Below, piece by piece: positions 29,021-47,834 of a stretch of 64,000 nucleotides of DNA (position 1 is its first letter; each line of letters starts with the position of its first letter). A model generated the notes under the pieces. That model did no database searches and was not told the origin of the DNA. It saw nothing but the letters and a program-made list of their open reading frames with translations. This stretch comes from Candidatus Zixiibacteriota bacterium (lineage in GTDB: Bacteria; RBG-13-66-14; B26-G2; WVWN01), in the NCBI GenBank assembly GCA_030613505.1, contig JAUWLW010000011.1, positions 945 through 64,944 on the forward strand, in the 5' to 3' direction. The translations under genes were made by a program, and so were the position numbers.

Positions 29021-29551
29021 TTAAGCCGCAGTACCTTGCCGGCCGGCCTCCTCTTTTTTTTTAAACATCACGCGCTCCAGCAAGCCGAATAAGGCCGGCG
29101 CGAGCGACGTCACCACGACGTCGGCTCGAGGAATCCGCTTCCGGAGGAGCTCGAGCGCCGCGGCCTCATCCACCTCCGGTACGACGTACTTTTTACGCCG
29201 CAACCAAGCGAACAACCCCCGCGGCCGCTGGTGGAGAAGCCAGAACGCTCGCGCCAATATCGTTACGTACTCGTGGATGTCGGTTAGCTCCGGCCCCAGC
29301 CGCTCCAGCTCCCGCACCACGGCCTCGAACACCTCCAGCGACGGCACCGGTATCGTGACGCGCAGCCGCTCGTCCTCGTAGACGTAGACCTGCTCGTCGG
29401 CGAGGCGCTTGAGCTCCACGCCCACCCGGCCCGAGCCGGGCATCCCCGGCGCGTAGCGCGTTATCATCTCTTGCGCCTCGGCCGGAAGCTCCGACGACGG
29501 CCTTACGTCGGCGCCCAGCCGCTTCAGCTCCTCCTTCAGCTCCTCGCTCAT
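29021..29551 (-). CDS. hypothetical phage protein (possible tail-assembly chaperone position)
   Basis: MSEELKEELKRLGAD.... The ATG overlaps the stop of 29551..30306 by 1 nt. Confidence 0.4.
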   Translation of the reverse strand: MSEELKEELKRLGADVRPSSELPAEAQEMITRYAPGMPGSGRVGVELKRLADEQVYVYEDERLRVTIPVPSLEVFEAVVRELERLGPELTDIHEYVTILARAFWLLHQRPRGLFAWLRRKKYVVPEVDEAAALELLRKRIPRADVVVTSLAPALFGLLERVMFKKKEEAGRQGTAA

Positions 29552-30306
29552 CAGTCGAAGTAGATGACCAGGTCGCCGGAGGCGTCGTTGTTGACGCGGA
29601 ACTCGCGCGTTAAGGCGTCGTGGCCCGCGCGCGTAGCGCCCAGCTTCAGCGCGCCGGTCCACACGATATCCTTGGCGTGGATCGTCATGCGGCCCAGCGT
29701 ATTGGTCTCCAGGAACCGCTCGATGACGAGATACCCCGCCCAACTTGACGGCGTATCCGTAGGTCCTATCGTGACCTTGACGCCGGAGGTGTTGGTATAC
29801 AGGTACGTCGTCTTGACCGCCTTGTCGGCGTCCGCGGAGTGGAACGTCAGCACGCCGCTCGCGACCTGGACCTCGCCCGACCCCGACGGCGCGCCGGAGA
29901 CGACCTGGAAGTACGACTTGGCCGCGCCCGAGCCGGTATACACGGAGCCGTGGCCTATGGAGTCGTCGCCGCAGTTGGCGGAGTTGGTCAGCGTCACGTC
30001 GTACGGCGAGCCGGACGGGACCGTCCCCGCCTCCTCCTTGGCCACCGATATGCCCTGCGAGGCGGTGGTCGAGCCGCCGATCAGCGCCGCGACCAGGTTG
30101 GCGTCGGAGTAGTGCCAGCCGATGGTCCCGCCGAACCCGCCTATCAGCGCGTGGTACGCGTTCTGGTTGTTCCAGTTCCCCTTCGGGATCTCGATCTCCT
30201 TGGTGTCGACGTTGAAGTTTATCTCGGCGTAGCCCAGGAACGGGTACTTGTTCGTGGTGTCGAACACCATCCCCTGGCCCACCAGCGCACCCAGTGCGAG
30301 TGCCAT
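29551..30306 (-). CDS. putative major tail/structural protein
   Basis: 251 aa, Gly/Ser/Thr-rich beta-type composition, downstream of head genes. No specific motif recognised. Confidence 0.35.
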   Translation of the reverse strand: MALALGALVGQGMVFDTTNKYPFLGYAEINFNVDTKEIEIPKGNWNNQNAYHALIGGFGGTIGWHYSDANLVAALIGGSTTASQGISVAKEEAGTVPSGSPYDVTLTNSANCGDDSIGHGSVYTGSGAAKSYFQVVSGAPSGSGEVQVASGVLTFHSADADKAVKTTYLYTNTSGVKVTIGPTDTPSSWAGYLVIERFLETNTLGRMTIHAKDIVWTGALKLGATRAGHDALTREFRVNNDASGDLVIYFD

Positions 30307-30805: not shown

Positions 30806-30877
30806 AGCGTCAAACCTCCGCGGCTGCGACGCGGCGTTCTGTTATTAAGTTGGAATGGGAATGTGAACGGGTGGAAA

Positions 30878-31111
30878 CTAGCCCTCGAGCTGGGAGAGGC
30901 GGGCCTCGCCGGCTCGCGCCCGGTAGGCGGTCTGGATGTCGGCGTCAACGCCGGGGTCGGAAAGGTCGTAGCGGTCGCGCAGGACCGCCTCTATCTCGGC
31001 CTCCGCCCGGTCGCGGTTGGCGGTTACGCGCGCGTCCGCGCACAGGTCGCTCGTAAGCAGCGGATACTCCGTCCGCACGTCGCTTACGTTCGCCGGAGTC
31101 GTCCAGGCCAT
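30878..31111 (-). CDS. chimeric small protein: connector-like N-terminal 52 aa fused to the VDADIQTAYRARAGEARLSQLEG module
   Basis: The N-terminus is near-identical (also at nt level) to 32841..33299, 39549..40010 and 43159..43620. The C-terminus matches 22871..23512. Confidence 0.45.
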   Translation of the reverse strand: MAWTTPANVSDVRTEYPLLTSDLCADARVTANRDRAEAEIEAVLRDRYDLSDPGVDADIQTAYRARAGEARLSQLEG

Positions 31112-31143: not shown

Positions 31144-31238
31144 GGCCGGCCTCGAGCCAATCGAGGCGCCGGTGGTAAACGCTGCAATCGTTTAATGGGA
31201 AATGCGCGAGATGGGAAACTTACGGTGAGGAAAGGTTG
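31144..31238. repeat. conserved ~90-nt intergenic element, copy A
   Basis: ...CGAGGCGCCGGTGGTAAACGCTGCAATCGTTTAATGGGAAATGCGCGAGATGGGAAACTTAC..GAGGAAAGGTTGTTACTTATCGTC. Also at 36773, 40030 and 41320. Confidence 0.6.
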
Positions 31239-32213
31239 TTACTTATCGTCCGCGGCGACGGGGCGGAAGTATTGGACGCGGTGGTTGCCGGCGTCGGCAA
31301 CGTAGACGGTGCCGTATGCGGCGACGGCTACGGTAATGGGGCCGGAGAATTCGCCTTCGCCTTTACCGTACGAACCGAATTGACCCAGGAAAGAACCCTC
31401 GCGGGAGAAGTATTGTACCCGTTCGTTGCCGACGTCTGCGATGAAGATGGTACCGTTGGAACCTACGGCGACGCCGCTCGGGAATTCGAATTTACCCTCC
31501 CCCGACCCGTGCCGTCCGAAAGATGCGACACACGAACCGTCGGAAGTAAACCGCTTAACTACGCATTCGTACGTATCCGCGACTAAAAATCCGCCTTCGG
31601 AGGTGGACGCCAAGGCAGCCGGGTAGAAACGGCCGCTTTTTTCTCCCACGACGGCCGGACGAGACTTGAAGATTATCGACCCGGCTTCATCATAACATGT
31701 TACGAACGGCGACGCGCCATCACCCACTAAAACCCGGCCACCAGCGGTTACGGTAAGAGAGGGCGGCATACCGTAAACGTACAGCCTTTCCCTAGGGTTG
31801 GCGTCTCGGTAAGGCCACTCGTTTATGAACGAGCCGGCGGCGGTAAACCTTTTCACGTTGCGGGTACGCGCGTCGGCAACGAAAACCGAACCGTCGATAC
31901 CCGCCGCTAAACATACCGGTTCTAACCCCGGGGGATTTCCCCCTTCTTCGGGAACCTGAGGATCGAGTTGCCATTTAGTTATGAAAGAACCTGAACCCGA
32001 AAAAACCTGTACCGTTCGTGCCGCCTCGTCAATCGCGTAAACACTACCTTGCGGTCCGACGGCAATACCGACCAACTCGAGGAATTGCCCGTCGCCCGAG
32101 CCCTTTTCGCCCCAACCGCCGGCGTAAACGTACCTCTGGGGGGCCGCGGGTTTGGGGCTGCACGTTACGGACAAAGCAACCGCTAATAACGTTATTGAAA
32201 ATAGGCGCGTCAT
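31239..32213 (-). CDS. secreted NHL-repeat protein (subfamily ending ...YFRPVAADDK)
   Basis: Signal peptide. NHL repeats. Confidence 0.8.
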   Translation of the reverse strand: MTRLFSITLLAVALSVTCSPKPAAPQRYVYAGGWGEKGSGDGQFLELVGIAVGPQGSVYAIDEAARTVQVFSGSGSFITKWQLDPQVPEEGGNPPGLEPVCLAAGIDGSVFVADARTRNVKRFTAAGSFINEWPYRDANPRERLYVYGMPPSLTVTAGGRVLVGDGASPFVTCYDEAGSIIFKSRPAVVGEKSGRFYPAALASTSEGGFLVADTYECVVKRFTSDGSCVASFGRHGSGEGKFEFPSGVAVGSNGTIFIADVGNERVQYFSREGSFLGQFGSYGKGEGEFSGPITVAVAAYGTVYVADAGNHRVQYFRPVAADDK

Positions 32214-32764
32214 TTCCCGAATAAACTACCAAACCATTGTAATAAGTTAGGCGGTTCTTCCTCAACTATAAACTTACCCCTAAGTTCCGGGTATTTGAAA
32301 CCTCGACCCGTACCCGGCCATACTCTCAACTTCCGTGTGAACCCGCAGGATATCGCCCATTCCCGCCACTTGTCTATTTTTTGGTAACACGCGCATATAT
32401 ACAACGTTCCATCACCCGCGATATAAGGCGCGGTATTTCGGAATATCTCGTCAGGACTTATTAATTCTAGTTGCGGGGGCCAATGCCGCAATAAACCGGG
32501 TCCCGGGTAAACGCCATGATGGTAAATTATAATATGGTCGAACCGTCGCCAACCGCTAACACCTTGATAAGTCCGCCACACGAAAGTATTTTGGATCGTA
32601 CTACCGATGTCGTCGGGTTCGGTCGGAACGAAATAGGCAAAATCCAATATGACATCATTCGCCTCGGCCAGGTCGAGATAAGTTTCCTTATCCCCCTCTA
32701 CGTCGCCGGCTTGGCGACTACCAAGGGCTGTGACTATACACGCGAATTCCGTGCGATCGCCCAT
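32210..32764 (-). CDS. hypothetical protein
   Basis: 184 aa, locally lower GC. Overlaps the next gene by 4 nt. Confidence 0.4.
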   Translation of the reverse strand: MGDRTEFACIVTALGSRQAGDVEGDKETYLDLAEANDVILDFAYFVPTEPDDIGSTIQNTFVWRTYQGVSGWRRFDHIIIYHHGVYPGPGLLRHWPPQLELISPDEIFRNTAPYIAGDGTLYICACYQKIDKWREWAISCGFTRKLRVWPGTGRGFKYPELRGKFIVEEEPPNLLQWFGSLFGK

Positions 32765-32840
32765 TTACAATCGTAGTATTATTCGGCCGCTAGAGGCAGC
32801 CGCGGCCTTTCACGTATAACCGGGCGGCTGTTACCGTTAA

Positions 32841-33299
32841 TTAATCGTCGTCGTTGAATGGGAATCCCGGCCCGGGATGTTTATTAAGGCCGAAACTACT
32901 AAAGGCGCTCTTTCCCAGGTCGAAATTCCCCACCGTCGGCGTAGGGATGTTCCTCGATACTTTTAAAGAAAGCTTTACCTTGCCTCGAAGAACGTCCGCT
33001 TTAAATACTTCCCACTCGTGCCAGTACGTCGAAGCCGCCGTCCGCCCCTCCCCGGTCCACCCCTGCTCGCCGTACGCCGAGTTGATGCAGTGGTAGAGCG
33101 TCAGCGCCAGGCAGATGCGCCACACGTACTTGTCGGCGCCGGGGTCCGTCAGGTCGTAGCGGTCGCGCAGGACCGCCTCTATCTCCGCCTCCGCCCGGTC
33201 GCGGTTGGCGGTAACTCGCGCGTCCGCGCACAGGTCGCTCGTAAGCAGCGGATACTCCGTCCGGACGTCGCTTACGTTCACGGGAGTCGTCCAGGCCAT
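32841..33299 (-). CDS. phage gp6-like head-tail connector-like protein (152-aa family, 3 full copies)
   Basis: N-terminal VSDVRTEYPLLTSDLCADARVTANRDRAEAEIEAVLRDRYDL resembles gp6-type connectors. Positioned after the major capsid gene. Confidence 0.45.
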   Translation of the reverse strand: MAWTTPVNVSDVRTEYPLLTSDLCADARVTANRDRAEAEIEAVLRDRYDLTDPGADKYVWRICLALTLYHCINSAYGEQGWTGEGRTAASTYWHEWEVFKADVLRGKVKLSLKVSRNIPTPTVGNFDLGKSAFSSFGLNKHPGPGFPFNDDD

Positions 33300-33673
33300 T
33301 ATTCTTTCCCCCTTCTCTTGCTCGAGCCGCGGCCGCGGCCTTTGCCGGATGTCGCTTTCTTATCGTTTGAACTCTTCTTCGCCGTCGCCGTGGGCGCCTT
33401 TTTGGCCGGGGCCTTCCGTACCTCCAGGTGGCCCAGCTCGACGCCGCGCTCGAGGCGCGCCATGTCCGCGGCGGCCTCGTCGAACGCGGTCCACTTGCCG
33501 GCGAAGAACCGTACGTCGCCGAAGACGCGGCCTCGCGTCCTCATGAGCGCCGGGCCGTCGCCCTCCAGCGTCCTCAGATATTCGTCCGTCAGTCGTCCTT
33601 CGCACATAGCCATAGCGATTACCTCACGTCGGTAATATTCAACGAAAAGGAGTTGGGAGCCCGGGTTGGCCAA
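33299..33673 (-). CDS. hypothetical phage protein with Lys/Arg-rich C-terminal tail
   Basis: ...KAPAKKAPTATAKKSSNDKKATSGKGRGRGSSKRRGKE. Confidence 0.4.
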   Translation of the reverse strand: MANPGSQLLFVEYYRREVIAMAMCEGRLTDEYLRTLEGDGPALMRTRGRVFGDVRFFAGKWTAFDEAAADMARLERGVELGHLEVRKAPAKKAPTATAKKSSNDKKATSGKGRGRGSSKRRGKE

Positions 33674-33691
33674 GCCTCCCCGGGCTCTTTT

Positions 33692-34612
33692 TTAGACGTC
33701 GCCGATTATCGCAAGGTACCACGGGCCGTAGCCGAAGCGGTACCGCTCGTACGTCTTGGTGACGTAGTTGTCGGTATGCTGGTCGGGCTCGAAGACGTTG
33801 ACCTCGAGGTCGATGCGCTTCTGGAATATGAACGGCCTTACGGGCTTGCCTAGGTCGAGGAAGTACCAGGCGGTGGCGCTGGAGATGTAGGGCGTCTGGA
33901 TGAGCGCCAGCTTCTCGTAGAACGGGTTGTAGCCGGCGTTGGCGGTGCCCGCGGCGCCCGGCGTGTTGATGAGCATCTCCCACGCGACGCCGGTGTCGCC
34001 GGCGCCGGTCACGATGTGGGTCGGCCGGACGTCAAGCGGGCTGCCCTTGGGGTCCGTGAAGGCGCGCATTACCTTGAGGACGTCGATGGCGTTTGAGAGT
34101 GACGTCGCCAGATCGGCGGTCCCCACGGCCTTGTTCTGGTCGTCGTTGGACTGGTTGGAGCTGCCGGCGTGGTCGGTGTCGAAGAAGTACTGGCCGTCGT
34201 GGCACGTGGCGGCGGTGCCGCCGGTGACGAGCGAGGCCCAGTTATCCTGGAGCTTGATCTGGTGGCCTATGGCGGCGCTCTGGAACTTCTGGCGGATGTA
34301 GTTGTGCCGGTCGTCCTCCACCATCTTGCGGTGGATGTCGATGGCCAGGCCGTAGGTGTAGTTGGTTAAGGAGTAGCTCTCGTCGTCTAGGCCGTAGTGG
34401 ATGCGGGCGTCCTCGTCGATGCGCCCCGGGACCGGCAAGCGGCCGCCGAAGCCGTAGTACTCTGTTTCGCCGTCGCTCGACGTCACCATAACGGCGTCCT
34501 TCCAGGAGGCGTCCTGGTAGTACGAGTCCTCGTAGATGCGGAAGAACTCCTCCTTGCACGCCACCTCCAGGACCCGGGCGAAGTCGCTCGGCGAAAGGTT
34601 AGGTCCTGCCAT
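33692..34612 (-). CDS. phage major capsid protein (Mu gpT-like size and position)
   Basis: 306 aa, directly after the protease/scaffold and a small gene. No signal peptide. Confidence 0.55.
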   Translation of the reverse strand: MAGPNLSPSDFARVLEVACKEEFFRIYEDSYYQDASWKDAVMVTSSDGETEYYGFGGRLPVPGRIDEDARIHYGLDDESYSLTNYTYGLAIDIHRKMVEDDRHNYIRQKFQSAAIGHQIKLQDNWASLVTGGTAATCHDGQYFFDTDHAGSSNQSNDDQNKAVGTADLATSLSNAIDVLKVMRAFTDPKGSPLDVRPTHIVTGAGDTGVAWEMLINTPGAAGTANAGYNPFYEKLALIQTPYISSATAWYFLDLGKPVRPFIFQKRIDLEVNVFEPDQHTDNYVTKTYERYRFGYGPWYLAIIGDV

Positions 34613-34667
34613 TAAAGTTCACCCCCCTTGAATTGGGATTCGGACAAGGGGCTTGGGCCCCCTGCGT

Positions 34668-35114
34668 TTACGGACAATAGTTGTCGACGGCGAGCACGGC
34701 CGTCGAGGTCAGGTAGTCGACGCAGCAGCCGACCTTGCAGCCGGTGGTCGTGCCGGACTGCGCCGTGGCCGGCGTACCGGAGGCCCCGCCGTCGCAGTAG
34801 AACTCGGTGCCGACGTCGGTGACGGCGGGCGTGCCCTTGACGAACTCGAACAGGCCCTTGCGCCACACCTTTATCTTGGCGGTGCCGTCGCCGGTTACGG
34901 TCTGAGCCGCGACGCCGGCGAAGGTCTCGCTCGCCAGGTTGGCGGCGTACGTCACGTAGCCGGTTAGCGCGGTCGTGTCGTACTCGAAGACCACGAGCGA
35001 GCCCTTGTAGACCGTGACGCCGCTCTTGACGATGTAATGGGTGTAGGCCGAGTCGTCGTTGGGAATGCGGCGCGGGTTACACTCGTGCTCCGCGGTGATG
35101 TTTCCAAACGCCAT
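34668..35114 (-). CDS. hypothetical head protein (decoration-like?)
   Basis: 148 aa between the protease/scaffold and the major capsid. Confidence 0.35.
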   Translation of the reverse strand: MAFGNITAEHECNPRRIPNDDSAYTHYIVKSGVTVYKGSLVVFEYDTTALTGYVTYAANLASETFAGVAAQTVTGDGTAKIKVWRKGLFEFVKGTPAVTDVGTEFYCDGGASGTPATAQSGTTTGCKVGCCVDYLTSTAVLAVDNYCP

Positions 35115-35167
35115 TTACTTCACCCCCCTTTGGGTTCGGTATAGGGCGGCGGGTATGAAACCCGCCG

Positions 35168-36742
35168 TTATAATTGGCCGTAGAGCTCGCCGAGGCGGCG
35201 CTCGATGGCGGCTTCGTCGTAGCCCATCGCCTTAAGCACTTCCACCACTTCGGGGTTCTCGCGCGCCAAAGGCGACGGCTCCGCGGGCCGGCCGTGCTCC
35301 TGGGGCTCGCCTCCGGTGGGCGCGGCGTCGAAGCGGACCTCCAGAGCCGCCGCGGCCTCCATCGCGAGCTCCTTGTCCTTCAGATAGAGCTCGAGCCACT
35401 TGCTTTGATGCGCCGGCTTGGCACGGCCCGCGCGGACCAGCGCCTCGGCGAAGCGTTCCGCCTCGGCCTCGAAGGCCATGCGGTCGTGGGCGGCGCGCTC
35501 GAGCTTCTCCAGCCGGAGATTGTCGCGCTCGGCCTTGACGGCCTCGAAGTCGGTCGCCAGCCGCTCGTGCCGACCCCGGAGCGCCTCGAAGCGGGCGCTC
35601 AGGCCGTCGAGCCGCGTCTCCATCCGGGCGACGTCTTTCGACGGAGCGCCCTCGCCGCGGAAGCCGAGCTTGCCGAGGAACTTCGCCAGCCGCCGCGACT
35701 TAGCGCCTTCGGCCTCGACCGCGGCCTTGTCTTCCTCCGCGGGTTTCTCCCCTTCCGCCTTGGCCTCCTCCAGCAGCGCCTCCAGCTCCTCGCGGACGCG
35801 CTCGCGGTCTTCCTCGGGAATCGGCTCGCCGGTGGACATAGTCTCGGCGTCGAGCGCCGCCAACGCCTCCTCCACGTGCGAGAGCGAGACGTTGCCTTCC
35901 GCGTCGCGGACCGGGAAGTGGCGCAGCTCGCGCGGGACGGTCTTACCCTCCTCGTCGGCCTCGCCGCCGGGCTCTACGTAGGCGAACGACTCGTCGGGCA
36001 GGGCGTCGACGTACTCGGCGTCCCACTTTTCCTCGGGCCCTTCGGCCTTCGGCTCCTTCTCGTCGTCGACGGCGTCGCCGGCGCGGAAGTAGAAGCCGCC
36101 GTCGCGGCGCGCTTCCATCAGCGCCTGGAAGCCGTCCTGTTCGCGGACGTGGGGGTCGAGGGTCAGGGCGACGTGGCGGATGACCTCGTCGTAGCGGCGG
36201 CCGCAGGCCGTGAGCACCGGCCCCACGCCGACGGAGACGTCCTGGATGGTGCCGTCCACGATGCGGGCGGCGGTGTCCTCGTCGGTAATGTTGAAGACGC
36301 CGTAGAGCTTGCCGTCGGCGATCTCGAAGGCCTCCACCCAGCCGGCGTTGTCGGCGGGATGGTAGGAGTGGTGGTACGGGACCCAGGTCTTGACGCCGGC
36401 GGCCCGGGTATCGTTCACCCAGTCCCGCAGGCGCTCGAGCGTGACGTCGACCGTCTTGCCCGGGTCGTCGGGGAGGACGTAGCGGCCCACGCGGATTATC
36501 TCCTTGCGGAAGCGCGCCTCGGCCTTGAGCGTCCACTCGCCTTCGGCCTCCTCGTATTTTTCTTTGGCCTTCTCCCAGGCGACGTCGGCGCACTCCTTCT
36601 GGGCGGCCTCGTCGGTCTTGCCCTTGTCGGCCAGGCAGGCGAAGTAGGACTCGCGCAAGAGCTCGTTGAGCTCCGCGGGGGCGTCCGGGCCGGCCTCGGG
36701 CGGTTTGAGCTTCTTCTCGTCGGGCATATTGAACCCCTCCAA
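35168..36742 (-). CDS. prohead protease/scaffolding fusion protein (Mu gpI-like)
   Basis: N-terminal globular region, then a long Glu/Ala/Arg-rich coiled-coil C-terminal half. Confidence 0.45.
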   Translation of the reverse strand: MEGFNMPDEKKLKPPEAGPDAPAELNELLRESYFACLADKGKTDEAAQKECADVAWEKAKEKYEEAEGEWTLKAEARFRKEIIRVGRYVLPDDPGKTVDVTLERLRDWVNDTRAAGVKTWVPYHHSYHPADNAGWVEAFEIADGKLYGVFNITDEDTAARIVDGTIQDVSVGVGPVLTACGRRYDEVIRHVALTLDPHVREQDGFQALMEARRDGGFYFRAGDAVDDEKEPKAEGPEEKWDAEYVDALPDESFAYVEPGGEADEEGKTVPRELRHFPVRDAEGNVSLSHVEEALAALDAETMSTGEPIPEEDRERVREELEALLEEAKAEGEKPAEEDKAAVEAEGAKSRRLAKFLGKLGFRGEGAPSKDVARMETRLDGLSARFEALRGRHERLATDFEAVKAERDNLRLEKLERAAHDRMAFEAEAERFAEALVRAGRAKPAHQSKWLELYLKDKELAMEAAAALEVRFDAAPTGGEPQEHGRPAEPSPLARENPEVVEVLKAMGYDEAAIERRLGELYGQL

Positions 36743-36772
36743 TCTTAAATTATGGAAAGCTTGCCGGCCGCT

Positions 36773-36849
36773 CGAGGCGCCGGTGGTAAACGCTGCGATT
36801 GATTAATGGAGATTAAGGGAGATGGGAAACTTGCCGCGAGGAAAGGTTG
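36773..36849. repeat. conserved intergenic element, copy B
   Basis: Same core as 31144..31238. Confidence 0.6.
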
Positions 36850-37779
36850 TTACTTATCGTCGGGGGCGGCGGGACGGAAATATTGGATGCGGCCGTTGCC
36901 GGTGTCGGCTACGTAGACGGTGCCGTCCGCGGCGACGGCGATACCTGCAGGGTAATGGAACTCGCCCGGGCCGAGACCGTCGTTACCCCAGGCGCTTACG
37001 AAAGACCCCTCGGCTGTGAAGTGTTGTACACGGTGGTTATAATTATCCGCGACAAATACGTCGCCGTTCGGGCCGACGGCGATGTCGCCCGGGTATAAAA
37101 ACTCGCCTAAACCGGAACCCATTTTACCCCAAGAACCGAGGAATTCCCACTCGGCGTCGAAATACATAACTTTCCCGGAAGTGTTGTTTAATAAATATAT
37201 TATACCCTCGGCCGTTATAGCGATACTCACGAAATCAGTGTAGCGGAATTCTTTACAACGCCACTCCCCTATATATTCCCCCCCGGGCTTGAAGTATTGA
37301 ATCCGGCTGTTATTGTAGTCTACTACGAAAACCGTCCCTAAGGGTCCGAACGCTATACCCGCCGGTCCATGGAACTCGCCCGGGCCCTTACCAGGACCGC
37401 CCCATTTACCGACAAACTCCTTTTCCTTCGAAAAAAACTGCACGTCGTCCCGGTATATATCGGCGACGTATATATTCCCGTTATCGGCTACGGCTACGGT
37501 CGTAGGATATCGGAATTCGCCGTCGCCGTTACCTCCGGAACCGAACGCGCCGAGGAATATACCCTCGGGCGAAAAATATTGTACCCGGGCGTTCCCCGTA
37601 TCGGCAACGTAAACGATGCCTTCAGGGCCGACGGCGACGTCATAAGGAATGTTAAAACAGCCGTTGAAGGCCGCGCTAACCCCCCAAGACCCCGCGTACA
37701 CGTAATCATTTCCGGCCGCCGTCAACCCGGGAGTTAAGAGAAGGACGCAGCTTAAAAAGTTTATGAGGAGTTTATACAT
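36850..37779 (-). CDS. secreted NHL-repeat protein (...YFRPAAPDDK)
   Basis: MYKLLINFLSCVLLLTPGLTAAG signal peptide. NHL repeats. Confidence 0.8.
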   Translation of the reverse strand: MYKLLINFLSCVLLLTPGLTAAGNDYVYAGSWGVSAAFNGCFNIPYDVAVGPEGIVYVADTGNARVQYFSPEGIFLGAFGSGGNGDGEFRYPTTVAVADNGNIYVADIYRDDVQFFSKEKEFVGKWGGPGKGPGEFHGPAGIAFGPLGTVFVVDYNNSRIQYFKPGGEYIGEWRCKEFRYTDFVSIAITAEGIIYLLNNTSGKVMYFDAEWEFLGSWGKMGSGLGEFLYPGDIAVGPNGDVFVADNYNHRVQHFTAEGSFVSAWGNDGLGPGEFHYPAGIAVAADGTVYVADTGNGRIQYFRPAAPDDK

Positions 37780-37794
37780 AGGTTAAGAACGGTA

Positions 37795-38727
37795 CTACTT
37801 ATCGTCCGCGGCGGCGGGGCGGAAGTATTGAATGCGGCCGTTGCCTTTATCAACGACGTATAACAAACCCCCCGCGGAAAAAGCCAAACTACACGGTGCA
37901 TAGAATTCGCCGGCGTTGAAACCCTCTACCCCCAACTTGCCTAAAAAAGAACCTGTCGACGTGAAATATTGAATGCGATGATTAAACTCATCCGCAACGT
38001 ACACGTTGCCATCAGGGCCCACCGTAATACCGGTAGGGAAATCGAATTGCCCGTCGCCAACGCCGTGAGAACCCCACATACCTAAAAAAGAACCGGAACG
38101 GTTAAAATACTGCACCCGATGGTTTTCTGAGTCGGTAACGAAGATTTTACCGCCCGAACCAGCCGCGATATCTCCGGGGTTCCTAAAACACCCCTCTCCC
38201 GTACCGCTGGAACCCCATTCCCTTAAAAATGAACCGGTGGAAGTGAAATGTTTTATACGGTTTTCGAGGCGGTCGGCTACATAAACGTCGCCGTTAGTAT
38301 CCACACCTAGGGCACTCGGAAAAGAAAAAGAACCGCCGACGGTTACGAAGGAACCCCACTCGTATACGAAATCGCCGTCCCGCGTAAACCGTTGTACCTT
38401 CCCGAGTTCGGTTTGGAGAATGTAAATATCGCCGTTGGGGGCTACCTCCACCGCTTCCGGAAAATCAAACTCCCCCTCGCCCGGAGCGTAATTACCCCAC
38501 GTACTTATTACCGACCCGGAAGGCGTATATTTGGCGAGACGTTGCATCCTTAAATCAATTACGTATACGTTTCCATCAGCGCCGACGGCGACGCGCCCGG
38601 GAAGCGAAAGATTCATTGTCCCGTCTAAGGTACGCCACTCCCCCGCATATCGGTATTCATTAGCGATAGATGGCTTACCGCAGGTAAGCGACAAAAAGAC
38701 GAATACCATTAGAAATCGAACGCGCAT
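37795..38727 (-). CDS. secreted NHL-repeat protein (...YFRPAAADDK); near-duplicate of 41406..42338
   Basis: MRVRFLMVFVFLSLTCG... signal peptide. Confidence 0.8.
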   Translation of the reverse strand: MRVRFLMVFVFLSLTCGKPSIANEYRYAGEWRTLDGTMNLSLPGRVAVGADGNVYVIDLRMQRLAKYTPSGSVISTWGNYAPGEGEFDFPEAVEVAPNGDIYILQTELGKVQRFTRDGDFVYEWGSFVTVGGSFSFPSALGVDTNGDVYVADRLENRIKHFTSTGSFLREWGSSGTGEGCFRNPGDIAAGSGGKIFVTDSENHRVQYFNRSGSFLGMWGSHGVGDGQFDFPTGITVGPDGNVYVADEFNHRIQYFTSTGSFLGKLGVEGFNAGEFYAPCSLAFSAGGLLYVVDKGNGRIQYFRPAAADDK

Positions 38728-38841
38728 ATTCTATATCCCGTGGATATCGTAAAACATCTTATATTACTTATTATAGCTATAAAAAGCGGAAACGTAAAGT
38801 CCCTACGTCATCGTGGTAAATATATTAAAATATTTAAACGC

Positions 38842-39540
38842 TTAAGGCCGGACGGGTCCGAAAGGCCAAGGACAAGTATACCGCACCGTAACGTACCAAT
38901 GGGGCGGGTCCCCCGTTAGGTGGTAGAAACCGCCCACGTCGTTGTCACCTATACTGTGCAAGACGGCTGGGTCCATCGGCGGGTCGAATCGGTTGGCGAA
39001 AAAAGTCTTAGCATCAGGCCTCGTAACGACGTCAACGGCGCAACCGTTCCAATGGCCGAACGCGTCGCTTGCGTCCCGAATGCCGTACGGGTCACTCTCG
39101 GGTAAACCATTAATTACCGGCGTACCCAAGCGCCGATAACCCGACGTTAAGTATATAACCGGCTTCATTCCGGCGGGTATGCCCCAGGGGCGAGGGAATA
39201 ATTTCTTATGCTCCTCCCACGCCGCGTCGCGCCACTCGCGCAGCTTCTCGATTAACTCCGGACGCGCCAACATACACCGATCGCCGTGCGCCGTCGTCGC
39301 GACCTTATTGGGGATAGGCTCCAGGACATTTTTCTCTATATCGTCGACGACAGCCTGTAAATCCTCCCACGAACTTACGCCCGGTTGGTGCCTTTTAAAG
39401 CTCGTTATTAAATCCCTAATCGCGGCCCGTTCTTCCCAGTCGTTGGAATACGCGTACGACGCCAGCGTTCGGAAGCGGCAAGAATTCAACCCCCGAACCG
39501 TGGAGTGCCGGGCCAATGGTCCCATCGGGTCGGCAGCCAT
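38842..39540 (-). CDS. peptidase M15-family (VanY / L-Ala-D-Glu endopeptidase-like) zinc peptidase
   Basis: LTSGYRRLGT...SDAFGHWNGCAVDVV...DPPHWYV. About 85% nt identity to 42452..43150. Confidence 0.55.
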   Translation of the reverse strand: MAADPMGPLARHSTVRGLNSCRFRTLASYAYSNDWEERAAIRDLITSFKRHQPGVSSWEDLQAVVDDIEKNVLEPIPNKVATTAHGDRCMLARPELIEKLREWRDAAWEEHKKLFPRPWGIPAGMKPVIYLTSGYRRLGTPVINGLPESDPYGIRDASDAFGHWNGCAVDVVTRPDAKTFFANRFDPPMDPAVLHSIGDNDVGGFYHLTGDPPHWYVTVRYTCPWPFGPVRP

Positions 39541-39548
39541 TTTTCCCC

Positions 39549-40010
39549 TTAGTCGTCGTCTTCGCTAAACGGAAAACCCGGCCCGGCGTGTTTATCCAGG
39601 CCGAAACTGCTGAAGACGCTTTTTCCCAGGTCGAAGTTCCCCACCGTAGGCGTAGGGATGTTCCTCGACACAGTTAAAGAGAGTTTAAGCTGGCCGCGAA
39701 GGACGTCGCCTTTGAACACTTCCCACTCGTGCCAGTACGTCGAGGCCGCCGTCCGCCCCTCGCCGGTCCAACCCTGCTCGCCGTAGGCGGAGTTGATGCA
39801 GTGGTAGAGCGTAAGCGCCAGGCACACGCGCCACACGTACTTGTCGGCGCCGGGGTCGGAAAGGTCGTAGCGGTCGCGCAGGACCGCCTCTATCTCCGCC
39901 TCCGCCCGGTCGCGGTTGGCGGTTACCCTAGCGTCCGCGCACAGCTCGCTCGTCAGCAGCGGGTACTCGGTCCGCACGTCGCTCACGTTCACGGGAGTTG
40001 TCCAGGCCAT
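39549..40010 (-). CDS. connector-like protein (152-aa family)
   Basis: MAWTTPVNVSDVRTEYPLLTSELCADARVTANRDRAEAEIEAVLRDRYDL.... Alternative ATG at 40016. Confidence 0.45.
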   Translation of the reverse strand: MAWTTPVNVSDVRTEYPLLTSELCADARVTANRDRAEAEIEAVLRDRYDLSDPGADKYVWRVCLALTLYHCINSAYGEQGWTGEGRTAASTYWHEWEVFKGDVLRGQLKLSLTVSRNIPTPTVGNFDLGKSVFSSFGLDKHAGPGFPFSEDDD

Positions 40011-40029
40011 TACCATACACCTTCCTTCG

Positions 40030-40130
40030 CCGGCCTCGAGCCGCTCAAGGCGCCGGTGGTAAACGCTGCGATCGTTTAATGGGGATTAAGCGCGATGGGA
40101 AACTTGCTGTGGGGAAACTTAATTAATTAC
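40030..40130. repeat. conserved intergenic element, copy C
   Basis: Same core. Here it lies downstream of the LLYVE-family gene. Confidence 0.55.
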
Positions 40131-40140
40131 GGCCGGGCCG

Positions 40141-41211
40141 CTACTCGACGTAAAGCAAGCCGTAGTCGTACGGCGGCGGGGCTTCGGCAGCCTCCGCTTC
40201 CGGGATGGAGACGGGAACCGGTTCCGCGGAGGTCCCGTCGGGATACGTTACCGCGATATGCGCGGTGTCCTCGTCCCTCGGGGGAGTTAAAATATATACA
40301 AAAGCATCGCGGGAGAGCGAGTAACATACAGGCCCCGGCGTTCCGTTGACCTTCACCTCGCGGTAACCGCCTGGCGCGCCGGCGTAGCGGAGGTAGATCG
40401 TACGTTCGTCGGCCTCCTCGGCCTTTGCGGTATCGTCGGCGTACGCTCTCGGGCCGGCGATCGCCGTCGGCGCCGCGGGTAGGAGTTGGCCTACTCCCTC
40501 CGGGCCGCCGTACGGAACGTACCGCGTCGGCTCGCGGCCGAAATGGTCCGGGAATATTCCGAGGGGAACGACGTCGAACGTCTTCTTGTCGACGTAGCCG
40601 TAAAGCCGCCGTCGGCCGTAAGAGGTTTTATCGTCATACAAAACGCAAATCCTGTCGTCGTCGGCCTCGCCGTCCAGGAAGACGGATCGTCCCAAGCGGG
40701 CGAGCTCAAGCGGAGGCCCCGCGGTCGGCTCGTACCGATATAGGACCGTCTCGCGGTACTTCTCGCCGTCGGCCCCGGTCGCGACCGCTTCCGCGCCGAC
40801 GTAGAACGCCCCCTCGCCGGCGTCGAAAATTACGTCCCCGTACGGCTGACGGGGCCCCTCTAATTCCAGGATAACCTCGGCCTCCCCGGACTCGCTCGAG
40901 GCGCCGGGGGCGGCGAGGCGGTAACAGACGAAACGCCCGTCGGCCTTCAGGTCGAAGCCGGCGACCAGGACCGTCTCCCACGGCTCGTCCGCGACGGCGC
41001 TCCATACGTGTAAATCGTGGAAGGAGGCGAGCTCCTCTCCCTCGCCGGTTCGTACGTCGACGAGGTAGAGGGTGAAGAGGTACTCGTCGCCGGCGTTCTT
41101 AAGCCACTCGCCGTAGAGACATCGCCAGGGGTCTTCTTCGGCGGCAGAGAAGGCGACCGTACTTAAAAGAAATAAACCCGCGGCGTAAAACGCCAATAGC
41201 TTACGGCCCAT
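40141..41211 (-). CDS. secreted hypothetical protein, 'LLYVE' family
   Basis: Signal peptide MGRKLLAFYAAGLFLLSTVAFSAA. Ends ...YDYGLLYVE. Confidence 0.6.
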   Translation of the reverse strand: MGRKLLAFYAAGLFLLSTVAFSAAEEDPWRCLYGEWLKNAGDEYLFTLYLVDVRTGEGEELASFHDLHVWSAVADEPWETVLVAGFDLKADGRFVCYRLAAPGASSESGEAEVILELEGPRQPYGDVIFDAGEGAFYVGAEAVATGADGEKYRETVLYRYEPTAGPPLELARLGRSVFLDGEADDDRICVLYDDKTSYGRRRLYGYVDKKTFDVVPLGIFPDHFGREPTRYVPYGGPEGVGQLLPAAPTAIAGPRAYADDTAKAEEADERTIYLRYAGAPGGYREVKVNGTPGPVCYSLSRDAFVYILTPPRDEDTAHIAVTYPDGTSAEPVPVSIPEAEAAEAPPPYDYGLLYVE

Positions 41212-41282
41212 CTCCGACGCCTCCCGTTCAGCGCGTTAAACGACGTAGTTCTACACGAGGATTCGATTGCGTCTTCGCCGTG

Positions 41283-41312
41283 AAATTAACACCGGGTCTA
41301 ACAGTTGTCAAG
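41283..41312 (-). promoter_or_regulatory. sigma70-like promoter TTGACA-18-TAATTT for 40141..41211
   Basis: Minus strand: -35 at 41312-41307, -10 at 41288-41283. SD GGGAGG before the ATG. Confidence 0.35.
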
Positions 41313-41319
41313 GAGCATA

Positions 41320-41405
41320 CCGGCCGCTCGAGGCGCCGGTGGTAAACGCTGTAATCGTTTAATAGGGATTAAGCGAGACGTGAAACTTGCTACGAGGGAA
41401 CGTTA
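41320..41405. repeat. conserved intergenic element, copy D
   Basis: Same core. Confidence 0.6.
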
Positions 41406-42338
41406 TTACTTATCTTCCGGCGCGACGCGGCGGAAATATTGGACGCGGCCGTTACCTTTATCAACGACGTATAACAACCCGCTAGCGGAAAACGCCAAAC
41501 TACATGGTGCGTAGAACTCGCCGGCGTTATAACCCTCTACCCCCCACGTACCTAAAAAAGAACCATTGGGCGTAAAATATTGAATGCGATGATTAAGCTC
41601 ATCAGCAACGTATACGTTACCGTCGGGGCCTACCGTAATACCAGTAGGGAAATCGAATTGCCCGACACCAACCCCGTGAGAACCCCACATACCCAAAAAA
41701 GAACCCGAACGATTAAAATATTGCACGCGATGGTTTTCCGAGTCGGTAACGAAGATTTCGCCGCCCGAACCAGCCGCGATATCTCCGGGGTCCCTAAAAC
41801 AACCCTCACCGCCACCCTTCGAACCCCATTCCCCTAAAACCGAACCGGTGGAATTGAAATGTTTAATACGGTTTTCCAGGCGGTCGGCTACGTAAACGTC
41901 GCCGTTAGCGGCCACACCCAAAGCGCTAGGAAAAGAAAAAGGACCTCCGACGGTTACAAAGGACCCCCACTCGTATACGAAATCGCCATCCCGCGTAAAC
42001 CGCTGGACCTTCCCGAGCTCGGTTTGGAGAATGTAAATATCGCCGTTGGGGGCTACCTCCACCGCTTCCGGGAAATCAAACTCCCCCTCGCCCTCGGCGA
42101 AATTACCCCACGTACTTATTACCGACCCGGAAGGCGTATATTTGGCGAGACGTTGCATGCTTAAATCAATTACGTATACGTTTCCTTCAACGCCGACGGC
42201 AACACGGCCGGGAAGTGAAAAATTCATTGCCCCGTCCAAGGTACGCCACTCGCCCGCATATTCGTATTCGTTACCGATAAAAGGCCTACCGAATGCGAGC
42301 GACAAAAGGATAAATACCATTAAAAATCGAACCCGCAT
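41406..42338 (-). CDS. secreted NHL-repeat protein (...YFRRVAPEDK)
   Basis: Near-duplicate of 37795..38727. Confidence 0.8.
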   Translation of the reverse strand: MRVRFLMVFILLSLAFGRPFIGNEYEYAGEWRTLDGAMNFSLPGRVAVGVEGNVYVIDLSMQRLAKYTPSGSVISTWGNFAEGEGEFDFPEAVEVAPNGDIYILQTELGKVQRFTRDGDFVYEWGSFVTVGGPFSFPSALGVAANGDVYVADRLENRIKHFNSTGSVLGEWGSKGGGEGCFRDPGDIAAGSGGEIFVTDSENHRVQYFNRSGSFLGMWGSHGVGVGQFDFPTGITVGPDGNVYVADELNHRIQYFTPNGSFLGTWGVEGYNAGEFYAPCSLAFSASGLLYVVDKGNGRVQYFRRVAPEDK

Positions 42339-42451
42339 ATTCTACATCCCGTGGACGTCGTTAAATATCTTATTGTCTTATTATAGCTATTGAAAGCGGA
42401 AACGTAAAGCCCTTACGTAATCGTGGTAAATGGATTAGAATATTTAAACGC

Positions 42452-43150
42452 TTAAGGGCGGGCGGGCCCGAAAGGCCAAGGACAAGTATACCGGACATTA
42501 ACGTACCAATGGGGCGGGTCGCCCGGCAAGTCGGAAAATCCCTCCACGTCGTTGAGACCTATACTTTTTAAGACAGCTGGGTCCATCGGCGGGTCGAATT
42601 GGTTAGCGAAAAAAGTTTTAGCTTCCGGCCTAGTAACAACGTCAACGGCGCAACCGTTCCAATGGCCGAACGCGTCCCCGGCGTCCCGGACGCCGTAAGG
42701 GTCGTCTTCGGGGTAACCGTTAAGTATTGTCTTACCCAAGCGACGATAACCCGACGTTAGGTAGATAACCGGCTTCCTTTCGGCGCGTTGGCCTTTGGGG
42801 CGAGGGAATAACTTCTTGTGCTCCTCCCACGCTGCGTCGCGCCACTCGCGCAGCTTCTCGATTAACTCCGGACGCGCCAACATACATCGGTCGGCGTGGT
42901 CTGTCGTAGCGACGGTGGTCGGAATGGGAACTAGGATATTCTTCTCGATGTCGTCGACGACGGCCTGTAAATCCTCCCACGAACTTACGCCCGGTTGGTG
43001 CTTTTTAAAACTCGCAATCAAATCCCTTATCGCAGTCCGTTCTTCCGAGTCGTCGGAATACGCGTACGACGCCAACGTTCGGAAGCGGCACGAGTTCAAC
43101 CCCCGAACCAAGGAATATCGGGCCAAAGGTCCCATAGGATCGGTAGCCAT
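42452..43150 (-). CDS. peptidase M15-family zinc peptidase (duplicate)
   Basis: SGYRRLGK...FGHWNGCAVDVV...PPHWYV. Confidence 0.55.
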   Translation of the reverse strand: MATDPMGPLARYSLVRGLNSCRFRTLASYAYSDDSEERTAIRDLIASFKKHQPGVSSWEDLQAVVDDIEKNILVPIPTTVATTDHADRCMLARPELIEKLREWRDAAWEEHKKLFPRPKGQRAERKPVIYLTSGYRRLGKTILNGYPEDDPYGVRDAGDAFGHWNGCAVDVVTRPEAKTFFANQFDPPMDPAVLKSIGLNDVEGFSDLPGDPPHWYVNVRYTCPWPFGPARP

Positions 43151-43158
43151 TTTCCCCC

Positions 43159-43620
43159 TTAGTCGTCGTCTTCGCCGAACGGGAATCCCGGACCCGGATG
43201 TTTATTCAAGCCGAAACTGCTGAAGGCGCTCTTTCCCAGATCGAAGTTCCCCACCGTCGGCGTAGGGATGTTCCTCGACACAGTTAAAGAGAGTTTAAGC
43301 TGACCGCGAAGGACGTCGCCTTTGAACACTTCCCACTCGTGCCAGTACGTCGAGGCCGCCGTCCGCCCCTCGCCGGTCCAGCCCTGTTCGCCGTAGGCGG
43401 AGTTGATGCAGTGGTAGAGCGTCAGCGCCAGGCAGATGCGCCACACGTACTTGTCGGCGCCCGGGTCGGTCAGCGCGTAGCGGTCGCGCAGGACCGCCTC
43501 TATCTCCGCCTCCGCGCGGTCGCGGTTGGCGGTAACGCGCGCGTCCGCGCACAGGTCGCTCGTCAGCAGCGGGTACTCCGTCCGAACGTCGCTCACGTTA
43601 ACGGGAGTCGTCCATGACAT
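43159..43620 (-). CDS. connector-like protein (152-aa family)
   Basis: MSWTTPVNVSDVRTEYPLL.... Its start is 6 nt after the portal stop. Confidence 0.45.
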   Translation of the reverse strand: MSWTTPVNVSDVRTEYPLLTSDLCADARVTANRDRAEAEIEAVLRDRYALTDPGADKYVWRICLALTLYHCINSAYGEQGWTGEGRTAASTYWHEWEVFKGDVLRGQLKLSLTVSRNIPTPTVGNFDLGKSAFSSFGLNKHPGPGFPFGEDDD

Positions 43621-43626
43621 CGCCTT

Positions 43627-44925
43627 TCACCTTCCTGGTTGCGCCCCGACGGTTTCCGCCACATCCCCCTCGCCCTTGGGCATGGGCTCTTCCTCGGCGG
43701 CGGCGGGGCCGGCGGTCGGGGGGGGCGAGGCCGGCGTCTCTTCCGGCATCTTGAGGCCCATCTGCGCCACCTTGTCGCGGCAGGCTTCGATGGTGCGGCG
43801 GTCGGCGTTGGCCGAGAGGATGCCGCGGCACAGCTCGAGTATGAACTCGCGCTTGTCGTCGGAGAGTGGCTCGGCCTCGAGGTAGCACGTCGGCGGTTTT
43901 TGGAAGTTGTACTGGACCAGCTTCTTGACGTTGTGCTCGTTCTCGGCGCGCAGGACGTCGCCGGCGATGCCGTCGGTGGTCTTGGTGAAGAACTTGGAGT
44001 GGACCTCGGCCTGCTTGTACGCGCCCACCTCGCCCTGCGTCACGACGCGGTCCGGGATGCGGAGCGCGCGGAACATCTCGACGTTGAAGTAGTCGAGCTT
44101 CCCTACCCAGTGGCTGCCGTCGCCGGCGGGCGGGACAACGTCGACGTCCCACAGCGGGTTGCGGCCGTCGTCGAAGACCTGGGGCAGCGTGACGTAGGAG
44201 TTGTCGCGCACGTCGCGGCCCAGCGTCTGCGCCGCGCCGCGGTTGGTTACGTCGTCGCCGGTGTCGGGCGGATACTTCACCTTGACGAAGGGGGTGCCGA
44301 AGCGCTCGGCCTCGCGCAGCATGAACAACGTCAGCATCTCGTGGTTGTACCAGGCGCGGTAGCAGGACTTGGTGGCCGGGATGCCGTAGAGGTTGCCGAA
44401 CTCGTCGTCGTGGGCGTACCAGGCCGACTTGTCGGCGGGGACGTTTATGATGTCGCCGGCGAGCTGCTGGAATCCGTTGTAGGAGCCGTGCTCGTCGGCC
44501 AACCAGCGGCAGTTCTCGGGGTGCGGGTCGCGCAACTCGCGGAAGACCCACCTGGGCGCGCCGTGGTAGTCCACCGAGGTCCAGACGTGCTCGAGCGGCG
44601 CGTAACCGAAGTCGAGGGCGTTGAGGCACATTTTAGTGAAGCGGTCGCTCCACGGCTCCAGGTACTGCGACTCGACGAAGCGGCGCACGTCGGCGTCGTC
44701 GCACACCACGCGCTTCTCCGCCGCCAGCACCGCCATTTTGATGACGGCCAGGCCGAAGTGAATTTGCGGGTACTCGCGCATCCGCTTGAGCGAGGAGAAC
44801 GATATCGACGAGGGGTTGTAGACGCCCAGCTCGGCGATGAGCCGCGCGGCGTACTGGTAATAAAAACGGGTCAGCGACGCCTGATACGCCGCCGGGGTTT
44901 TTTTGCGGTCTTTATTCTGCGCCAT
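43627..44925 (-). CDS. phage portal protein (putative)
   Basis: 432 aa, overlaps the TerL stop by 14 nt. Acidic/Pro-rich C-terminus. Position is canonical. Confidence 0.55.
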   Translation of the reverse strand: MAQNKDRKKTPAAYQASLTRFYYQYAARLIAELGVYNPSSISFSSLKRMREYPQIHFGLAVIKMAVLAAEKRVVCDDADVRRFVESQYLEPWSDRFTKMCLNALDFGYAPLEHVWTSVDYHGAPRWVFRELRDPHPENCRWLADEHGSYNGFQQLAGDIINVPADKSAWYAHDDEFGNLYGIPATKSCYRAWYNHEMLTLFMLREAERFGTPFVKVKYPPDTGDDVTNRGAAQTLGRDVRDNSYVTLPQVFDDGRNPLWDVDVVPPAGDGSHWVGKLDYFNVEMFRALRIPDRVVTQGEVGAYKQAEVHSKFFTKTTDGIAGDVLRAENEHNVKKLVQYNFQKPPTCYLEAEPLSDDKREFILELCRGILSANADRRTIEACRDKVAQMGLKMPEETPASPPPTAGPAAAEEEPMPKGEGDVAETVGAQPGR

Positions 44926-47819: not shown

Positions 47820-47834
47820 ATTATAAGCCCCCAT

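Follow-up and report, generated by a model that had tools for sequence, protein, structure and literature searches.

A native spacer of a Mu-like head module is reused at cargo-gene boundaries in a prophage of Candidatus Zixiibacteriota

The 64,000-nt stretch of Candidatus Zixiibacteriota DNA studied here (contig JAUWLW010000011.1, positions 945 to 64,944; hereafter the window) contains four copies of a noncoding element of ~90 nt, all of them on the minus strand and within the head-gene region of a prophage. The element is the native spacer between the portal and the protease/scaffold genes of a Mu-like head module (Portal_Mu, gpT capsid), and there is little room for doubt that it has been reused at the boundaries of cargo genes through recombination. 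The prophage family that carries it has as hosts metagenome-assembled genomes (MAGs) labeled Coatesbacteria or Zixibacteria. Its closest cultured phages are Mu-like Pseudomonas phages, with a capsid protein that is <30% identical. A fuller statement, in which the reused spacer would also be a boundary between transcription units and a homology arm, is more tentative, and we give it a probability of about 0.45.

All genes between 28 and 46.5 kb of the window are on the minus strand, and the element is described in this orientation. The four copies lie at 31146..31238 (copy A), 36764..36849 (copy B), 40030..40140 (copy C), and 41320..41405 (copy D), within a few bases of the positions given in an earlier note on this DNA. 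A 20-mer, CAGCGTTTACCACCGGCGCC, matches the window four times without mismatches (0.04 matches expected by chance) and a second block, GCAAGTTTCCCATCTCGC, also matches four times, with at most two mismatches each (0.05 expected). A profile hidden Markov model of the copies found no fifth one in the 64-kb window, not even a weak or degenerate one. There is no conserved open reading frame (ORF) on either strand of the element, and the plus-strand ATG is absent from copy D.

The genes upstream (NHL324 for A, NHL309 for B, the 356-aa LLYVE protein for C, and NHL310 for D) and downstream (a 77-aa connector-like ORF, the protease/scaffold, a gp36-like connector of 155 aa, and LLYVE, respectively) are those that the earlier note had listed. 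Read along the minus strand, the large terminase, the Mu-type portal, gp36-like connector 1, a 232-aa protein, and NHL310a precede copy D, which is followed by the LLYVE protein and copy C. Then come connector 2, a 232-aa protein, NHL310b, NHL309, and copy B; the protease/scaffold, a 148-aa protein, the Mu gpT-type capsid, and a 124-aa protein; connector 3, a 184-aa protein, NHL324, and copy A; and, onward, the 77-aa ORF and a 145-aa protein. Copy D extends from the stop codon of NHL310a to the LLYVE promoter and ends in a short dyad (41320-41339). Copy C starts after the LLYVE stop codon, has a long variant of the dyad (40030-40056), and precedes a stretch of ~20 nt with homology to the portal end, after which comes connector 2. 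Copy A, which scores 81.6 bits with nhmmer, extends from the stop codon of NHL324 to the 77-aa ORF and also has the long variant (31146-31172). Copy B is in the native position: it consists of a C-rich, G-poor tract (about 36796-36849), a core (36784-36795), and a dyad (36764-36783), and ends ~40 nt upstream of the ATG of the protease. This ATG, at 36727 (MPDEKK...), is most likely the true start, as in all relatives, rather than the TTG of the ORF list.

The native position becomes apparent when the window is compared with its relatives. Our alignment includes 20 copies. The window contributes 4 and GTDB genomes 2; a DNA seed led to metagenome contigs with 5 more, and the protease protein to contigs with the remaining 9. 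The scan with the exact seed found homologues in a Candidatus Coatesbacteria chromosome (L034), in an unclassified MAG (L044), and on four JGI/ENA metagenome contigs (L057, L069, L072, and L074). Since an exact seed brings ascertainment bias, we also searched by protease protein instead of DNA motif. This gave 24 matches, including 14 homologues with at least 83% query coverage and 73-97% identity, several of them labeled Zixibacteria or Coatesbacteria. The element ends ~40 nt upstream of the protease ATG in 11/11 relatives, including one free of cargo, and all relatives with enough upstream sequence were positive (L078 through L087, L089, and L090). The profile search did not find it in the distant relative L088. 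In the cargo-free relative, L080, the portal gene (8606-9883), the element (9877-9961), and the protease gene (10001) are in direct succession, with no cargo and exactly one copy. This arrangement, together with the fixed position in the relatives, identifies the element as the native portal-to-protease spacer.

Outside these relatives the element had no counterpart in the collections that we searched. Neither the DNA seed nor the protease protein matched the IMG/VR viral contigs, and the element had no blastn match among the 50,697 records of the GenBank phage collection. It was also unmatched in Rfam at the gathering and E-value thresholds, where the one true match in the window was tRNA-Pro. 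A sub-threshold match to the flavivirus xrRNA at 40174-40260 (+) (23 bits versus a gathering threshold of 46.5, E = 0.027) lies inside the LLYVE gene, on its noncoding strand, and is almost certainly a chance match.

The interval from the end of the portal gene to the native spacer is a hot spot for cargo. Its left conserved boundary is the GC-rich 3' end of the portal gene (...PMPKGEGDV...; 43627..43720), and relatives other than L080 have 1-7 extra genes between this end and the element. The GC content at third codon positions is 0.52-0.67 for NHL310, NHL309, the 232-aa proteins, and NHL324, and ~0.9 for portal, protease, and capsid. Between 25 and 44 kb of the window, composition alone tells cargo from backbone genes. 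The cargo encodes apparently secreted NHL-repeat and LLYVE proteins and includes NHL genes at 31239-32213, 36850-37779, 37795-38727, and 41406-42338, and the LLYVE gene at 40141-41211. At their N termini, cargo proteins have what appear to be signal-like sequences, and at their C termini conserved tails, ..(I/V)QYFRPxAxDDK in this NHL family and ..PPPYDYGLLYVE in the other, which could be sorting or anchoring signals, judging from their sequence. The LLYVE, 232-aa, and 184-aa proteins had no match in Pfam or PHROGs.

Every copy of the element starts at or near the stop codon of the upstream gene on the same strand, and the copies bracket cargo units. Related contigs have 1-3 copies each, versus four in the window. 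The suggestion of the earlier note that the element behaves as a moron or cassette boundary is borne out by this arrangement and by the single copy in cargo-free L080. The comparison that it had proposed, with related phages lacking the cargo, reveals an empty site in L080, filled sites elsewhere, and differences that are bounded by the element. Units composed of a copy, a promoter, a cargo gene, and another copy are found in the window (D/C) and in L057, L085, and L086. The near-consensus promoter previously noticed after copy D is real as a motif: directly 3' of this copy, at 41283..41311 (-), there is a sigma-70-like promoter of the LLYVE gene (TTGACA, 17 nt, TAATTT, with a TGn before the second hexamer), which a simple promoter scan with a 4-of-6 rule had missed. 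It is conserved after copies in L072, L085a, and L086a, and after such D-type copies it precedes LLYVE-type genes in some cases and an NHL gene in another. NHL310a has a sigma-70-like promoter at 42380..42408 (-) (TTTACG, 17 nt, TATAAT), whose twin precedes NHL310b (38770-38798, -). Further cargo promoters are found in L057 (TTGTCA, 17 nt, TATAAT) and in L086 (TTGTCG, 17 nt, TATAAT).

How did the copies spread? It had been proposed that the element is independent of its neighbors. It is indeed the smallest unit that the copies share, but no copy in the window has a neighborhood wholly of its own. NHL genes precede copies A, B, and D and become more similar toward a common C-terminal tail, and copies A and C have the long dyad variant and the start of a connector gene in common. 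The downstream flank of copy B is common to all protease-adjacent copies in the relatives, and the flank of copy D is common to L072, L085a, and L086a. This sharing of flanks implies that segmental recombination, and not autonomous transposition, spread the copies. The homology in the upstream NHL genes was considered as a part of the element and rejected: it corresponds to the tail of the protein family (..QYFRPxAxDDK), which NHL310b has without the element.

The junctions tell the same story. Remnants of the portal tail are found directly after copies, with ~190 nt in L086b, ~100 nt in L074a and L074b, and ~20 nt in copy C. The junctions themselves differ: they are inside the dyad in L086b, after GGCCG in L074, and after CAAGCT in D-type copies. 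The long dyad of A, C, and L074 looks, from its sequence, like the product of a junction with the portal tail. In the window, a unit of 2.24 kb is present twice, at 41398-43640 and again at 37787..40030 (both on the minus strand), and opens with ~20 nt from the very end of the portal gene, followed by a gp36-like connector, a 232-aa protein, a promoter, and NHL310. The two versions are 86-89% identical and spaced by 3610-3611 nt (repeat families D13, D15, D17, and D19). The remnants of portal sequence after the copies thus indicate that the array grew by repeated joining of units made of portal tail, cargo, and spacer. From the sequences of their junctions, we read the arrays as concatenations of units from at least 2-3 independent joins at GC-rich microhomologies, and not as the work of an autonomous mobile element or of a fixed-point recombinase.

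The start of the gp36-like connector is present four times in the window: in the two units, in connector 3, and in the 77-aa ORF downstream of copy A (30878..31111, -). The latter is chimeric. Its ~56 N-terminal codons correspond to the gp36-like connector, and its last 21 codons, VDADIQTAYRARAGEARLSQLEG, match the C terminus of a 209-aa cargo protein, which L078 encodes upstream of its protease. In L087, an NHL gene is followed by a shorter remnant of the tail of this 209-aa protein. The next spacer, upstream of the 145-aa gene (30806..30877, -), is built like the element, with a stop codon, a C-rich, G-poor tract with CAUUCCCAUUCC, a GC hairpin, and a Shine-Dalgarno sequence. In L078, L082, L086a, and L089, the element is found fused with the 5' part of this spacer, and in relatives the spacer recombines with the element at a short microhomology of the AATCCCAC type.

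These data bear on two other explanations of the repeated copies. One is that the element is a site for site-specific recombination, akin to attC, or a small nonautonomous mobile element that moves cargo cassettes. The layout is that of cassettes, each unit having a copy at its 3' end, the junctions cluster at the GC dyad, and the dyad, like the core sites of recombinases, combines two invariant arms with a variable spacer. However, the crossover points and the lengths of the portal remnants (20, 100, and 190 nt) differ between events, which fits illegitimate or homologous recombination and not a fixed crossover. There is no recombinase gene by the array, the sole integrase of the window (3683-4690) being beside tRNA-Pro, and the element has no overall foldback on either strand, no terminal inverted repeats (its ends are TAAGTAAC... 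and ...GCGGCCGG), and no target-site duplications. We thus regard this explanation as very unlikely. The element was also considered as an att site, and this was rejected: the tRNA-Pro/integrase region has no sequence in common with it.

The other explanation is that the repeated copies are functionless passengers of segmental duplications and that the protease-adjacent copy alone matters. This would fit the observation that every copy has at least one flank in common with another copy, the loss of half of the dyad in L086b, and the evolution of the 5' half of the element, which is about as fast as, or faster than, that of synonymous sites. Yet the core and dyad of copies outside the native position are >85-90% identical, in the midst of cargo genes that are 25-60% identical over most of their length, a pattern of conservation that gene conversion could mimic. 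On balance, mere passengers seem unlikely to us.

The anatomy of the element suggests what it could do. It has four parts in the sense orientation: an AT-rich start that supplies stop codons; ~55 nt that are C-rich, strongly G-poor, and predicted to be unstructured, with UUCCC/AUCCCC-type motifs repeated ~15 nt apart; a highly conserved core, CA(G/C)CGTTYACCA; and a GC-rich dyad formed by CCGGCGC, a variable spacer of 5 nt, and GCGGCCGG. The last of these confirms the GC-rich tail reported before. Copies in the window have a C content of 0.25-0.32 and a G content of 0.11-0.14, i.e., C/G ratios of 1.8-2.9. Across the 20 aligned copies, G accounts for 4% of alignment columns 47-66 and is almost never among the bases of variable columns. 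Conservation is uneven. The 5' ~55 nt have 57-73% pairwise identity, no better than the third codon positions of the protease (79%), and the core and dyad (columns 67-99) have ~85% in every context. In the short form of the dyad (CCGGCGC, CNNNN, GC-G-GCCGG), the 14 stem positions are invariant in all short-type copies (14/20 of those aligned, plus L089 and L090), and the variation (TCGA, TCGC, CTAA, and TCGT) is confined to positions 9-12 of 20, in the predicted 5-nt loop. The chance that four variable positions would all fall in a 5-nt loop of 20 is, by our arithmetic, ~5/4845. This argues for the 3' GC dyad being a real hairpin or a two-armed protein site; there is no covariation.

Several other features were considered and set aside. 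The 5' end of copy C, TAATTAATTAA, gives a stop codon in all three frames, a property that is striking in LLYVE-class copies but not universal, and that is expected in AT-rich sequence. The segment GTTTCCCATC...ATTAAAC resembles a solitary CRISPR repeat by its GTTT...AAAC ends; we dropped the idea because the segment is among the least conserved in the relatives and because the window has no array-like repeat family. Sigma-54 or extracytoplasmic function (ECF)-type promoters at TGGTAAACGCTGC and AAAC...CGTT were also dropped, because the spacings, as judged by eye, misfit the known consensus. The template strand of the element has at least four runs of G3-5 with short loops, of quadruplex-like appearance, in some relatives (complement of the copies at 1221-1310 of L085 and at 2986-3065 and 4131-4209 of L086). 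These runs are canonical in L085a and L086, but a reading of the window copies revealed none, and hence a G-quadruplex is not a conserved feature of the element.

Could the element instead act as a structured RNA? The earlier note had described two small hairpins, UUAAUCCCCAUUAA and AAACGAUCGCAGCGUUU, and had proposed a cis-regulatory RNA or an antisense RNA to the 3' ends of NHL genes. The sequence of copy C allows both hairpins to be drawn, but the two overlap by two bases and neither is conserved. Across the 20 copies, hairpin 1 is paired in 56% of the cells and hairpin 2 in 81%, with the closing pair of hairpin 2 broken in 12/20 copies and zero compensatory changes in either. RNAalifold gave no consensus fold on either strand (-4.6 kcal/mol without covariation in sense orientation and -6 kcal/mol in antisense), and single copies mostly fold worse than their dinucleotide shuffles, with z-scores up to +1.6. 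Together with the lack of an Rfam match, this leaves a structured cis-regulatory RNA unsupported. The antisense proposal fares no better, since the scan found no plus-strand promoter nearby. Moreover, NHL is not a constant partner, since the copies also follow LLYVE and, in L080, the portal gene. The comparative data thus largely refute both proposals, whose probability we consider to be close to negligible.

We favor another reading, in which the reused spacer would be a boundary between transcription units and a homology arm. Translation would end at the 5' end of the spacer. The naked C-rich, G-poor RNA could then load Rho, or promote the formation of the 3' end otherwise, and the GC hairpin would serve as a pause, a termination structure, or a protection of the 3' end. 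With such a boundary, transcription from the cargo promoters, which probably fire in the lysogen, would not run on into the following unit or the head genes. Since the spacer is conserved, it could also provide, with the portal tail, the homology arm for the swapping and stacking of cargo, as in the promoter-early stem-loop (PeSL) cassettes discussed below. Three arguments lead us to favor this reading: the Rho-like anatomy, the position after promoter-bearing cargo, and the likeness to PeSLs. A strand-asymmetric, unstructured tract with more C than G, extending from the stop codon to a GC hairpin, is the anatomy expected of a Rho-dependent terminator, a composition that is permissive only. 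The copies are located after cargo units and before head genes, where the prophage would seem to need insulation. The specific mechanism, the spacer acting as a terminator or insulator, is plausible from the sequence, at somewhat lower odds than those we give to the fuller statement.

A number of observations weigh against this reading. Termination is a proposal drawn from the anatomy of the element. No U-tract comes after the hairpin (its tails read CAAGCUUUCC, UAUGCUCC, CGAAGGAA, and CCUGGGGA), a terminator scan called 0/4 copies, and the region has no excess of canonical terminators (19 found versus 15.8 expected). GC hairpins without a U-tract are also found within the protease-capsid operon, where efficient termination is impossible. 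A terminator between portal and protease looks counterproductive in the cargo-free relative, given that protease and capsid are far more abundant, and would require antitermination or a downstream promoter there. Some other spacers of the phage have G-poor leaders before a G-rich Shine-Dalgarno sequence, and the composition is thus not specific to the element. The upstream 135 nt are 71% conserved overall, versus 79% for the third codon positions of the protease, and clear constraint is limited to the core and the dyad. Part of the sample was found with the exact seed, which inflates the apparent conservation of the core in those copies. Finally, L078 and L082 carry 4-7 cargo genes but one copy each, and hence one copy per cargo unit is not a rule.

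The main rival of the boundary and homology-arm reading starts from the native position. The element could regulate the head operon (protease, 148-aa protein, and capsid) from its 5' side, either as an activator- or factor-dependent late promoter or as a 5' untranslated region controlling the stability or the translation of the mRNA, in which case the extra copies would be by-products of recombination. Its position ~40 nt before the protease ATG is fixed in the 11/11 relatives, and its most conserved block, the core and dyad, continues into a conserved start region (TTTCCAT ... TTGGAGGGG). Among protease-adjacent copies, the consensus fold has the Shine-Dalgarno sequence UGGAGGGG paired with CCCC and UCCA, and C-to-U changes are the only ones in these pairs. 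The logic of expression also favors raising protease and capsid over portal, and phage Mu has a separate late promoter (P_I) before its protease gene I. On the other hand, there are no sigma-70-like hexamers at a sensible spacing before the protease, whereas the cargo promoters are near consensus, and the CATAAT that follows the dyad varies (CATAGT, CATTTC, and CAATTC). No Mor/C-type activator, sigma factor, or RNA polymerase was found among the ~50 window proteins scanned with Pfam, a scan that covered the small ORFs in part. The core and dyad are equally conserved before unrelated genes, some of which have promoters of their own. As for the fold that sequesters the Shine-Dalgarno sequence of the protease-adjacent spacer, it is 99% paired and compatible with the data, but we rejected it because it has no compensatory change and hence no support from covariation. 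We see this rival as a possible but doubtful account of the element. The terminator and promoter readings are compatible with each other, and a single spacer could combine both roles.

The translation-initiation region of the protease (36728..36763, -), which is joined to copy B, consists of CAAGCTTTCCAT, an AT-rich loop, and TTGGAGGGGTTCAAT before the ATG. It is specific to protease-adjacent copies, and its UUCCA is able to pair with the UGGAG of the Shine-Dalgarno sequence. In the window and in the relatives, two small hairpins are possible around the protease start, one formed by UUCCA, a loop, and UGGAG and the other by GGGU, a loop, and GCCC around the AUG, with invariant stems and a variable loop. 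By their sequence, they could be involved in the translational control of the protease.

A more ambitious version of the boundary and homology-arm reading would make of the spacer and the portal tail a dedicated platform for stacking cargo, with the core and dyad recognized by a recombination or antitermination factor of the phage or of the host. It would capture, insulate, and stack independently transcribed genes for secreted proteins within the head operon, much like an integron without integron integrase. We consider this version to be a long shot.

The window has other features outside the head module. One end of the prophage is probably the region at 3092-4930, with a helix-turn-helix regulator, a tyrosine integrase, tRNA-Pro (4808-4882), and then a hairpin terminator whose U-tract is weak; nearby is an amidase gene (5559-6233). 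An island of metabolic-type genes is located on the opposite strand among the structural genes (17630-22776, +). It encodes a PhzF-like protein, an ICMT/PEMT methyltransferase, two zinc-ribbon proteins, and an S-adenosylmethionine (SAM) methyltransferase. L078, L085, and L087 likewise have ICMT and PhzF genes past the capsid gene, on the opposite strand. A G-rich "gap" of 703 nt between called genes (28848-29550) overlaps a 240-aa ORF starting with TTG (29021-29743) and is probably an uncalled or frameshifted gene and not a spacer. At 46842-59181 (-) there is a long run of further NHL-repeat genes, with a period of 141 nt, together with a tandem pair of cupin genes (47856-48561) and genes for an FG-GAP protein that has a Por secretion tail, for a TPR protein, and, farther along, for a Fic protein. 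L080 has the two cupin genes as well, upstream of its terminase, and hence this block moves at least in part with the phage.

If our favored reading is correct, temperate phages of uncultured bacteria can load genes for host interaction into an essential late operon without disturbing it, and a single spacer of the backbone doubles as a universal boundary and a recombination handle. The idea that regulatory cassettes shuffle genes would then extend from the PeSLs of lytic T4-type phages to prophages with Mu-like heads. In practical terms, the core and dyad, CGTTYACCACCGGCGCC-N5-GCGGCCGG, provide a marker for cargo hot spots in related metagenomic contigs.

Among known systems, the most instructive comparison is with the PeSL cassettes of T4-type phages (Arbiol et al. 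2010, PMC2839356; Comeau et al. 2014, PMC4122927), for which promoter and terminator activity, recombination between copies with crossovers in the loop, and mini-circles were shown experimentally. Like PeSLs, the element is a conserved intergenic repeat of ~100 bp that brackets nonessential, horizontally acquired genes in plastic regions and has a GC stem-loop after the upstream stop codon, followed in D-type copies by a strong sigma-70-like promoter. In both systems, close relatives differ by indels bounded by the repeat, with crossovers in or beside the stem-loop. Yet the two have no sequence similarity, and our element is in a temperate prophage with a Mu-like head, not in a T4-like myovirus. 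It derives from a single spacer of the backbone, between portal and protease, and has a long C-rich, G-poor tract that PeSLs lack. Its promoter is outside the conserved element and is found after D-type copies and in L057 only. Without a built-in promoter, the element falls outside the definition of a PeSL.

The cargo also resembles the morons of temperate phages such as lambda and HK97 (PMC3594210), units of promoter, gene, and terminator inserted in late operons, in that it lies in the late structural region, differs in base composition, and has its own sigma-70-like promoters and, 3' of the genes, a noncoding element. The ordinary intrinsic terminators of classical morons vary between morons, whereas here one conserved, backbone-derived element, devoid of a U-tract, is found at every boundary. 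With Rho-dependent terminators, e.g., tR1 of lambda, the element has in common ~60-70 nt of C-rich, G-poor, untranslated, and predicted unstructured sequence from the stop codon, with a structured GC-rich segment after it. It differs from them in that Rho utilization (rut) sites are normally not conserved in sequence and have no counterpart of the core and dyad. As a regulatory spacer directly before the protease/scaffold gene of a Mu-type head module, it resembles P_I of Mu, but no C/Mor-type activator was found among the ~50 proteins scanned, and no -10-like hexamer is conserved. As in integrons with their attC sites, the promoter-proximal cargo forms an array whose cassettes each have a repeat at the 3' end, but the element lacks an integron integrase, R and L boxes, an overall imperfect palindrome, and a fixed junction point. 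We see the element as a lineage-specific boundary derived from the phage backbone, whose closest analogues, although not homologous to it, are PeSL cassettes and the terminators of morons.

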